Assembly (NCBI GenBank): GCA_026110335.1
Contig: GCA_026110335.1_3055.1
DNA from: a phage
DNA length: 64,000 nt
Direction: 5' to 3' (one strand)
The translations under genes were made by a program, and so were the position numbers. The number at the start of each line of letters is the position of its first letter. Within the stretch, counting starts at the first letter, position 1. Below the pieces are notes generated by a model. That model made no database searches, was not told where the DNA came from, and worked only from the letters and a program-made list of their open reading frames with translations. Below, piece after piece: positions 4,504 through 4,944 of this stretch.

Positions 4504-4532
4504 ATAGTACCACATTCCTTGTGGAAGCATCA
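4504..4532 (-). promoter_or_regulatory. candidate MotA-dependent middle promoter for gene 63
   Basis: On transcribed strand: TGCTTC (mot-box-like) about 13 nt upstream of TACTAT -10. Confidence 0.4.
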
Positions 4533-4944
4533 TTTCTTCTTGTGTTGAATATTCCAAGGTGGGTTAAACAGTTTAATGAATAGCGGCTCCTCTAGATCAA
4601 TCGTTGCGATTGTCATTGTACCTAACTCATTTGTCATAGAAAGATTAAAACATTGGCGGGCGTAAAATTCAACTTTGCTTCCTTCCTTCCTTTAGCGCGG
4701 TATGAATTAATGCAGATTTAGTAGAATCAGACGTTTTGTCTTTACGATTAATAGCAGTTCTATAATAGTTTATTCTTTTACGTAAATTTTTAGTTTTTCC
4801 AATATAAACAAGCTCATCATTTATAGCAATAGCATAAATTACGTTATACTTGTTTGGAATAGATAATTGTTTTATACTTCCGTTGTCGTCTAATTCTAAC
4901 TCAGTATATTTAATAAATGAATATTCTGTTGCAATTTCTTTCAT
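4530..4944 (-). pseudogene. denA: endonuclease II (denA) with apparent +4 frameshift
   Basis: N-terminal 91 residues from MKEIATEY in one frame, then stop; the remaining C-terminus ([46 protein letters not shown]) is intact in another frame; shift maps to the CCTTCCTTCC repeat at about 4679-4692. Confidence 0.6.

Follow-up and report, generated by a model that had tools for sequence, protein, structure and literature searches.

The window, which is the whole 64,000-nucleotide stretch of phage DNA that was analysed, is a segment of a Tequatrovirus (T4-like) genome, as judged from its map of open reading frames (ORFs) and from annotated relatives. The minus strand carries, in order, pseT, alc, rnlA (3353..4513), denA, nrdB, and nrdA, and these are followed by the tail-fibre genes, rIIB, rIIA, and gene 43. 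A comparison of annotated regions with the ORF map places denA, the gene for endonuclease II (EndoII), between nrdB and rnlA, which is also its position in T4, G10400, and KMB39. The features of the locus are listed in Table 1. At the lesion, the minus strand of denA reads CTA-AAGG-AAGG-AAGG-AAGC. Translation from the ATG at 4944 yields 91 codons that end at the TGA at 4669-4671, while the +1 frame from 4676 to 4530 translates as KVEFYARQ...NIQHKKK and a stop, a displaced 3' part that is not translated from the denA start codon. The same break is seen by tblastn, where frame -2 matches residues 1-89 of denA and frame -3 matches residues 85-136. One uninterrupted frame joining the GIY-YIG motifs to Glu118 is absent at denA, and the locus is a pseudogene of the T4 EndoII/DenA family because a stop follows after 91 codons and E118 lies in the +1 frame.

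Table 1. Features of the disrupted denA locus, with positions in the window
Feature	Position	Strand	Remarks
denA (endonuclease II) pseudogene	4530..4944	minus	415 nt = 411 + 4 nt
Remaining 5' reading frame	4669..4944	minus	87 EndoII codons, 4 out-of-frame codons (RKQS), TGA 4669-4671
Tetranucleotide tract	4678..4692		Coding strand (AAGG)3-AAG; + strand CTTCCTTCCTTCCTT
3' portion of denA (residues 89-136), displaced	4530..4676	minus	+1 frame, no interruption
Glu118 codon GAG, Mg2+-coordinating catalytic residue	4587..4589	minus	Not in frame with the N-terminal codons
GC-rich hairpin GGGCC-TTGC-GGCCC, between nrdB and denA	4953..4966	minus	Read from the sequence

A preliminary description of this DNA had the 91 N-terminal codons matching EndoII up to the stop. 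The stop is where it was placed, but the match covers codons 1-87 only, with the frame already lost in codons 88-91 (RKQS). The remainder of EndoII was rightly described as intact in the +1 frame, and the shift had been assigned to a tandem repeat at about 4679-4692, which agrees with an alignment that puts the 4-nt gap in the AAGG repeat. The span had been equated with 136 codons plus 4 nt; the 4-nt excess is correct, but the stop codon was omitted from the sum (the 415 nt are 136 codons, the stop, and 4 nt). The choice of the ATG at 4944 rather than a GTG at 4968 as the denA start is supported by the hairpin at 4953..4966, whose counterpart in G10400 carries a terminator annotation, and the solved EndoII chain starts, after its tag, at the methionine of MKEIATE. 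The T4 RefSeq record NC_000866 gives denA as 435 nt (144 aa; 5518-5952), with a start that lies upstream, inside the nrdB terminator hairpin, unlike other records and the crystal structure, which use the 136-aa ATG start.

The sole length difference between this denA and those of T4, G10400, and KMB39 is one 4-nt gap in the alignment, within the AAGG repeat, so that the tract has 3.75 units here and 2.75 units in the wild type. Alignment to T4 denA had been proposed as a check on the preliminary description, and T4 does have one AAGG unit fewer. A single 136-codon denA frame is present in all eight of the relatives examined. The phage collection holds about 499-503 records that match the denA stretch. 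With a 701-nt query, each of the 60 matches listed aligns over 697 nt; with a 91-nt query, all 499 matching records fall within 90-95% identity, and all of the 40 listed align over 87 nt. The extra AAGG unit is therefore present in none of the 499 (0/499), since a record bearing it could not fall in the 90-95% band. Exact-pattern scans of viral, metagenome, and genome contig collections did not find the allele with three complete units, and a control scan with the wild-type pattern matched five viral contigs. The 15-nt period-4 tract exceeds chance, as the 64-kb window contains one period-4 tract of at least 15 nt against 0.06 expected from shuffles. Tracts of 11 nt, the wild-type kind, occur at chance frequency (6 seen, 5.5 expected from shuffles). 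With just 2.75 units and a frequency no higher than chance, the wild-type AAGG tract is no specialised hotspot. A phase-variable contingency locus was considered and rejected on the same length and frequency, together with the invariance of the tract in the 499 records.

The inserted bases duplicate the adjacent unit, and relatives have one unit fewer, as is characteristic of slipped-strand mutation. The displaced 3' part is 100% identical to T4 at the protein level (tblastn), and when codons 88-136 are compared with those of eight relatives there are 0-5 synonymous and 0 non-synonymous differences, with no differences at all to KMB39. On this sequence comparison the denA mutation appears to be very recent, because the displaced part shows no sign of decay as yet. 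Its recency also agrees with the occurrence of the exact repaired protein in other phages. We therefore consider it very probable that the lesion is a genuine, recent 4-bp tandem duplication by replication slippage, which leaves a null denA in a wild Tequatrovirus. The preliminary description had offered recent slipped-strand inactivation as one of its two explanations, and this has gained from the identity of the insert with its neighbouring unit, from the position of E118 downstream of the shift, and from the undecayed downstream codons. The finding is ordinary in kind, being a loss of function in a phage gene that is dispensable and has been much studied.

What the mutation removes can be judged from the protein that is obtained when one repeat unit is deleted in silico. 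This repaired protein matches PDB 2WSH chain A at 134 of 136 positions (residues 1-136, E = 1.3e-86), and the two differences are S82T and the engineered E118A of the crystal. The match to T4 EndoII noted in the preliminary description is thus good overall, with the one difference S82T, which is seen in intact genes of other phages too. An identical repaired protein is found in 65 contigs, Salmonella phage SG1 among them. The Pfam GIY-YIG profile (PF01541) is detected at 28.2-28.5 bits, above the curated cut-off of 22.6, and its match in the truncated product takes in residues 35-71, corresponding to profile positions 3-40 of 78, which is the first half of the domain. The mutation E118A abolishes EndoII catalysis, and E118 coordinates Mg2+ (PMC2764454). 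The codons for both E118 and N130 lie downstream of the shift. The 91-aa product should be catalytically dead because these two residues lie beyond the shift and the GIY-YIG domain is halved.

The likely course of events can be outlined as follows. Slippage during replication of the short direct repeat, along the lines of Streisinger's model, would have added one AAGG unit, and the insertion shifts the frame after codon 87 to give a 91-residue fragment. This fragment keeps the GIY and YIG motifs and R57 and should be unable to nick cytosine-containing DNA, as it has lost E118 and N130 along with the C-terminal third of the fold. By analogy with T4 denA-null mutants, the host chromosome would then not be broken down, nucleotide salvage from host DNA would be lost at a modest fitness cost, and host and plasmid DNA would outlast the infection. 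The phage would depend on its own NrdAB, Td, and Frd, and nrdA, nrdB, td, and frd are intact in the window by tblastn. The loss of one repeat unit would restore denA exactly, so the lesion should be reversible in principle.

The best matches to the window in the phage collection are about 95% identical over 24 kb. Exact protein matches were found for RnlA (EKC7973741.1), NrdA (EKC7973743.1), and RIIA (EKC7973783.1), all of which NCBI labels as Escherichia coli, on a 73,804-bp contig; the RIIA entry carries the locus tag OQC52_003583, and NrdA and RIIA form singleton clusters. Given these E. coli labels and the OQC52_ tag, the phage contig lies inside the draft assembly of an E. coli isolate, with which the phage was co-sequenced. 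This points to a carrier-state culture, or to contamination of the isolate with the virulent phage. There is a single protein accession between those of RnlA and NrdA, a gap that would fit annotation of both denA and the split nrdB as pseudogenes.

Several other loci in the window depart from T4. The nrdB gene is in two exons, at 4972..5451 and about 6564..7241 (minus), around an HNH ORF at 5611..6420 that is full length at 269 aa, whereas T4 has a truncated I-TevIII in nrdB. A search of 4000-12000 gave no group I intron at the Rfam gathering threshold, although the nrdB arrangement matches the annotated intron of T4. The td gene (10073-10933, minus) is a single uninterrupted ORF of 286 aa and lacks the td intron and I-TevI of T4 and G10400. 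Likewise, a single 606-aa ORF (38317-40137, minus) encodes the large topoisomerase II subunit, without the gene 39/60 split, the 50-nt translational bypass, and the mobA insertion of T4. Within 58144-59662 (minus), the position of segA is taken by a 225-aa ORF resembling GIY-YIG homing endonucleases (TIGR01453), and beside it, at the place of the T4 beta-glucosyltransferase, is a 282-aa ORF that may be a glucosyltransferase of the T2/T6 type. The gp38 ORF (25900-26688, plus) encodes 262 aa, comparable to the approximately 258 aa of the 'tail fiber adhesin' in G10400, whereas the assembly chaperone of T4 has 183 aa, and this size suggests a T2-type receptor-binding tip. NCBIfam gave no match for the HNH ORF, gp38, the ORF at the beta-glucosyltransferase position, denB, or ndd.

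Before a frameshift is accepted as biological, it must be weighed against an error of sequencing, library preparation, or assembly, in which case the true phage would have an intact 136-codon denA. Some platforms do miscall short tandem repeats, but the indel here is a whole 4-nt unit, unlike a miscounted homopolymer. Over positions 1-12762 of the window, Logan contig SRR22245981_401 matches at 100.000% identity without gaps, including the tract with three complete units, and it is the only record of the exact 91-aa product. The same sequence has thus come from two different assemblers, although the GenBank and Logan assemblies probably derive from one read set, and a library-level artefact or a mixed population is conceivable. 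To survey the window for frame switches, all ATG-started ORFs of at least 50 aa from T4 and G10400 were compared with it by tblastn, giving 293 ORFs with matches, a number that includes spurious ORFs as well as annotated genes. Among the annotated genes denA alone switches frame, and the other flags are antisense or overlapping-frame ORFs, 5' extensions, and intergenic or intronic indels. No other annotated gene in the 64 kb showed a frameshift or internal stop, which argues that the assembly is not indel-prone. It is very unlikely that a whole-unit insertion at consensus in two assemblies is an error, and the artefact that the preliminary description had kept as its alternative is now highly improbable. 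A laboratory allele, meaning an engineered or classical denA mutant such as multi-mutant T4 of the nd28 type, is scarcely credible. Widely used T4 strains do carry denA nd28 (PMC12115623), the molecular nature of which was not found in the searchable literature, and the preliminary description had likened the lesion to those of some laboratory denA strains. However, the identity of about 95% to the best matches, the unsplit gene 39, the uninterrupted td, and the full-length HNH ORF of the nrdB intron are all unlike T4, and the source proteins are labelled E. coli and lie on a 73.8-kb contig. None of seven marker genes (42, 56, alc, denB, ndd, rIIA, and rIIB) is disrupted, in a comparison confined to markers within the window. 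Laboratory multi-mutant T4 was accordingly rejected, as the backbone is not T4 and the companion markers (a denB/rII deletion, 42/56 amber mutations, and alc) are absent in the window. Least probable of all is recoding, in which ribosomes would slip by +1, in a programmed way or by chance, between the repeat and the UGA and so still make full-length EndoII. The frame would be regained by a +1 shift at any point in GGA AGG AAG CAA AGU UGA, and the rare AGG codon in the zero frame and the purine-rich tract AAGGAAGGAAGG, which resembles a Shine-Dalgarno sequence, might stimulate it. Against this, the stretch has no canonical +1 slippery codon (CUU-UGA, UUU-Y), and by the rules of frameshifting the P-site tRNAs at these codons should be unable to re-pair in the +1 frame. 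Pausing at AGG would be reduced by the tRNA-Arg for AGA/AGG that T4-type phages supply. The two-frame arrangement also occurs in none of the 499 relatives, and with the arrangement unconserved and the slippery motif absent, a programmed +1 frameshift site was rejected.

A different question is whether slippage, taken as the cause, was followed by selection. A null denA may be favoured on a host that senses phage-induced genome degradation, through PANGU or possibly an ApeA-type system, since an EndoII knock-out would remove the trigger of the defence; this refines the slippage explanation rather than excluding it. In a preprint on PANGU, six of six T4 escape mutants had denA lesions, namely G29R, C97W, a 28-bp deletion, a 1-bp deletion, a 1-nt insertion, and a ribosome-binding-site change, which amount to two missense, three frameshift, and one ribosome-binding-site class (bioRxiv 10.64898/2026.04.06.716658). 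One PANGU type originates from uropathogenic E. coli (bioRxiv 10.64898/2026.04.06.716658). Indirect support comes from a preprint on ApeA, in which host-DNA degradation products are proposed as the trigger and no escape mutants were recovered. The allele described here, like PANGU-type escape alleles, is a loss-of-function allele of denA, and its lesion is of the same class as those of EM3, EM4, and EM6. Co-sequencing with the E. coli isolate (OQC52_) implies sustained growth on that strain, and the allele is the one in the assembled consensus even though losing denA is known to lower fitness. Public assemblies contain two more denA frameshifts of independent origin. When the repaired protein was used as query, 85 cluster representatives were retrieved, nearly all 133-150 aa long, and the two frameshifts are among the short ones. 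In Logan ERR4138720_192 (denA at 3001-3420, interior of a 93.8-kb contig) there is a +2 AA insertion after codon 62, and in Logan ERR10140688_34202 (denA at 1444-1860) there is an 8-nt deletion, AAAGTTGA, after codon 88, which begins one base past the end of the same AAGG tract. Like the present allele, both are frameshifts in a well-conserved Tequatrovirus denA with the downstream sequence intact, but the lesions, phages, and samples are all different. A third short homologue, P0100, is 93 aa and lies on a 582-nt contig. Loss of denA thus recurs in nature, yet it is rare. A few null alleles among very many T4-like phages would also be expected from mutation and bottlenecks, however, and a mildly deleterious allele can become fixed simply through the purification of colonies or plaques. 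Adaptive loss is for these reasons a possibility that we regard as unlikely. The narrower proposal, that we have here a field example of PANGU-type escape in which a wild T4-like phage switched off EndoII by a repeat expansion that is reversible in principle, is put forward tentatively and is rather doubtful; if it were true, the two other denA frameshifts would belong to a recurrent natural escape route.

The locus shows that a soft-core gene of T4-related phages can occur knocked out in a wild phage. A phage that spares host DNA would be likelier to carry host or plasmid DNA in transduction, and transduction by non-degrading phages matters in choosing T4-like phages for therapy (PMC12115623). 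The assembly bearing the OQC52_ tag and the read set SRR22245981 offer a concrete phage-host pair for asking whether the sensing of genome degradation selects for denA loss. The recent link between denA loss and escape from defence, together with an identifiable phage-host sample, adds modest weight to an otherwise familiar kind of mutation.

Three known systems provide the closest comparisons. The first is T4 EndoII itself (DenA, 2WSH), with which the locus shares its position between nrdB and rnlA, the GIY-YIG domain, and, after repair, the 136-aa sequence save for S82T. In T4 EndoII, E118 and N130 are joined to the N-terminal part, whereas here the frame is broken after codon 87 and the gene is a pseudogene. 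Slipped-strand frameshifts of the Streisinger type, reportedly first described in T4 lysozyme and rII, have in common with this lesion the addition of one short-tandem-repeat unit that is identical to its neighbour, and no mechanistic difference is apparent. The nd28 allele and the PANGU escape mutants EM3, EM4, and EM6 are also null denA lesions, several of them small frameshifts with premature stops, and the expected phenotype is shared: an undegraded host chromosome and a viable phage that would bear a fitness cost. Known selection or mutagenesis of laboratory T4 gave rise to those alleles, whereas the lesion described here is a +4 tandem duplication in a non-T4 Tequatrovirus from the read set of an E. 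coli isolate.
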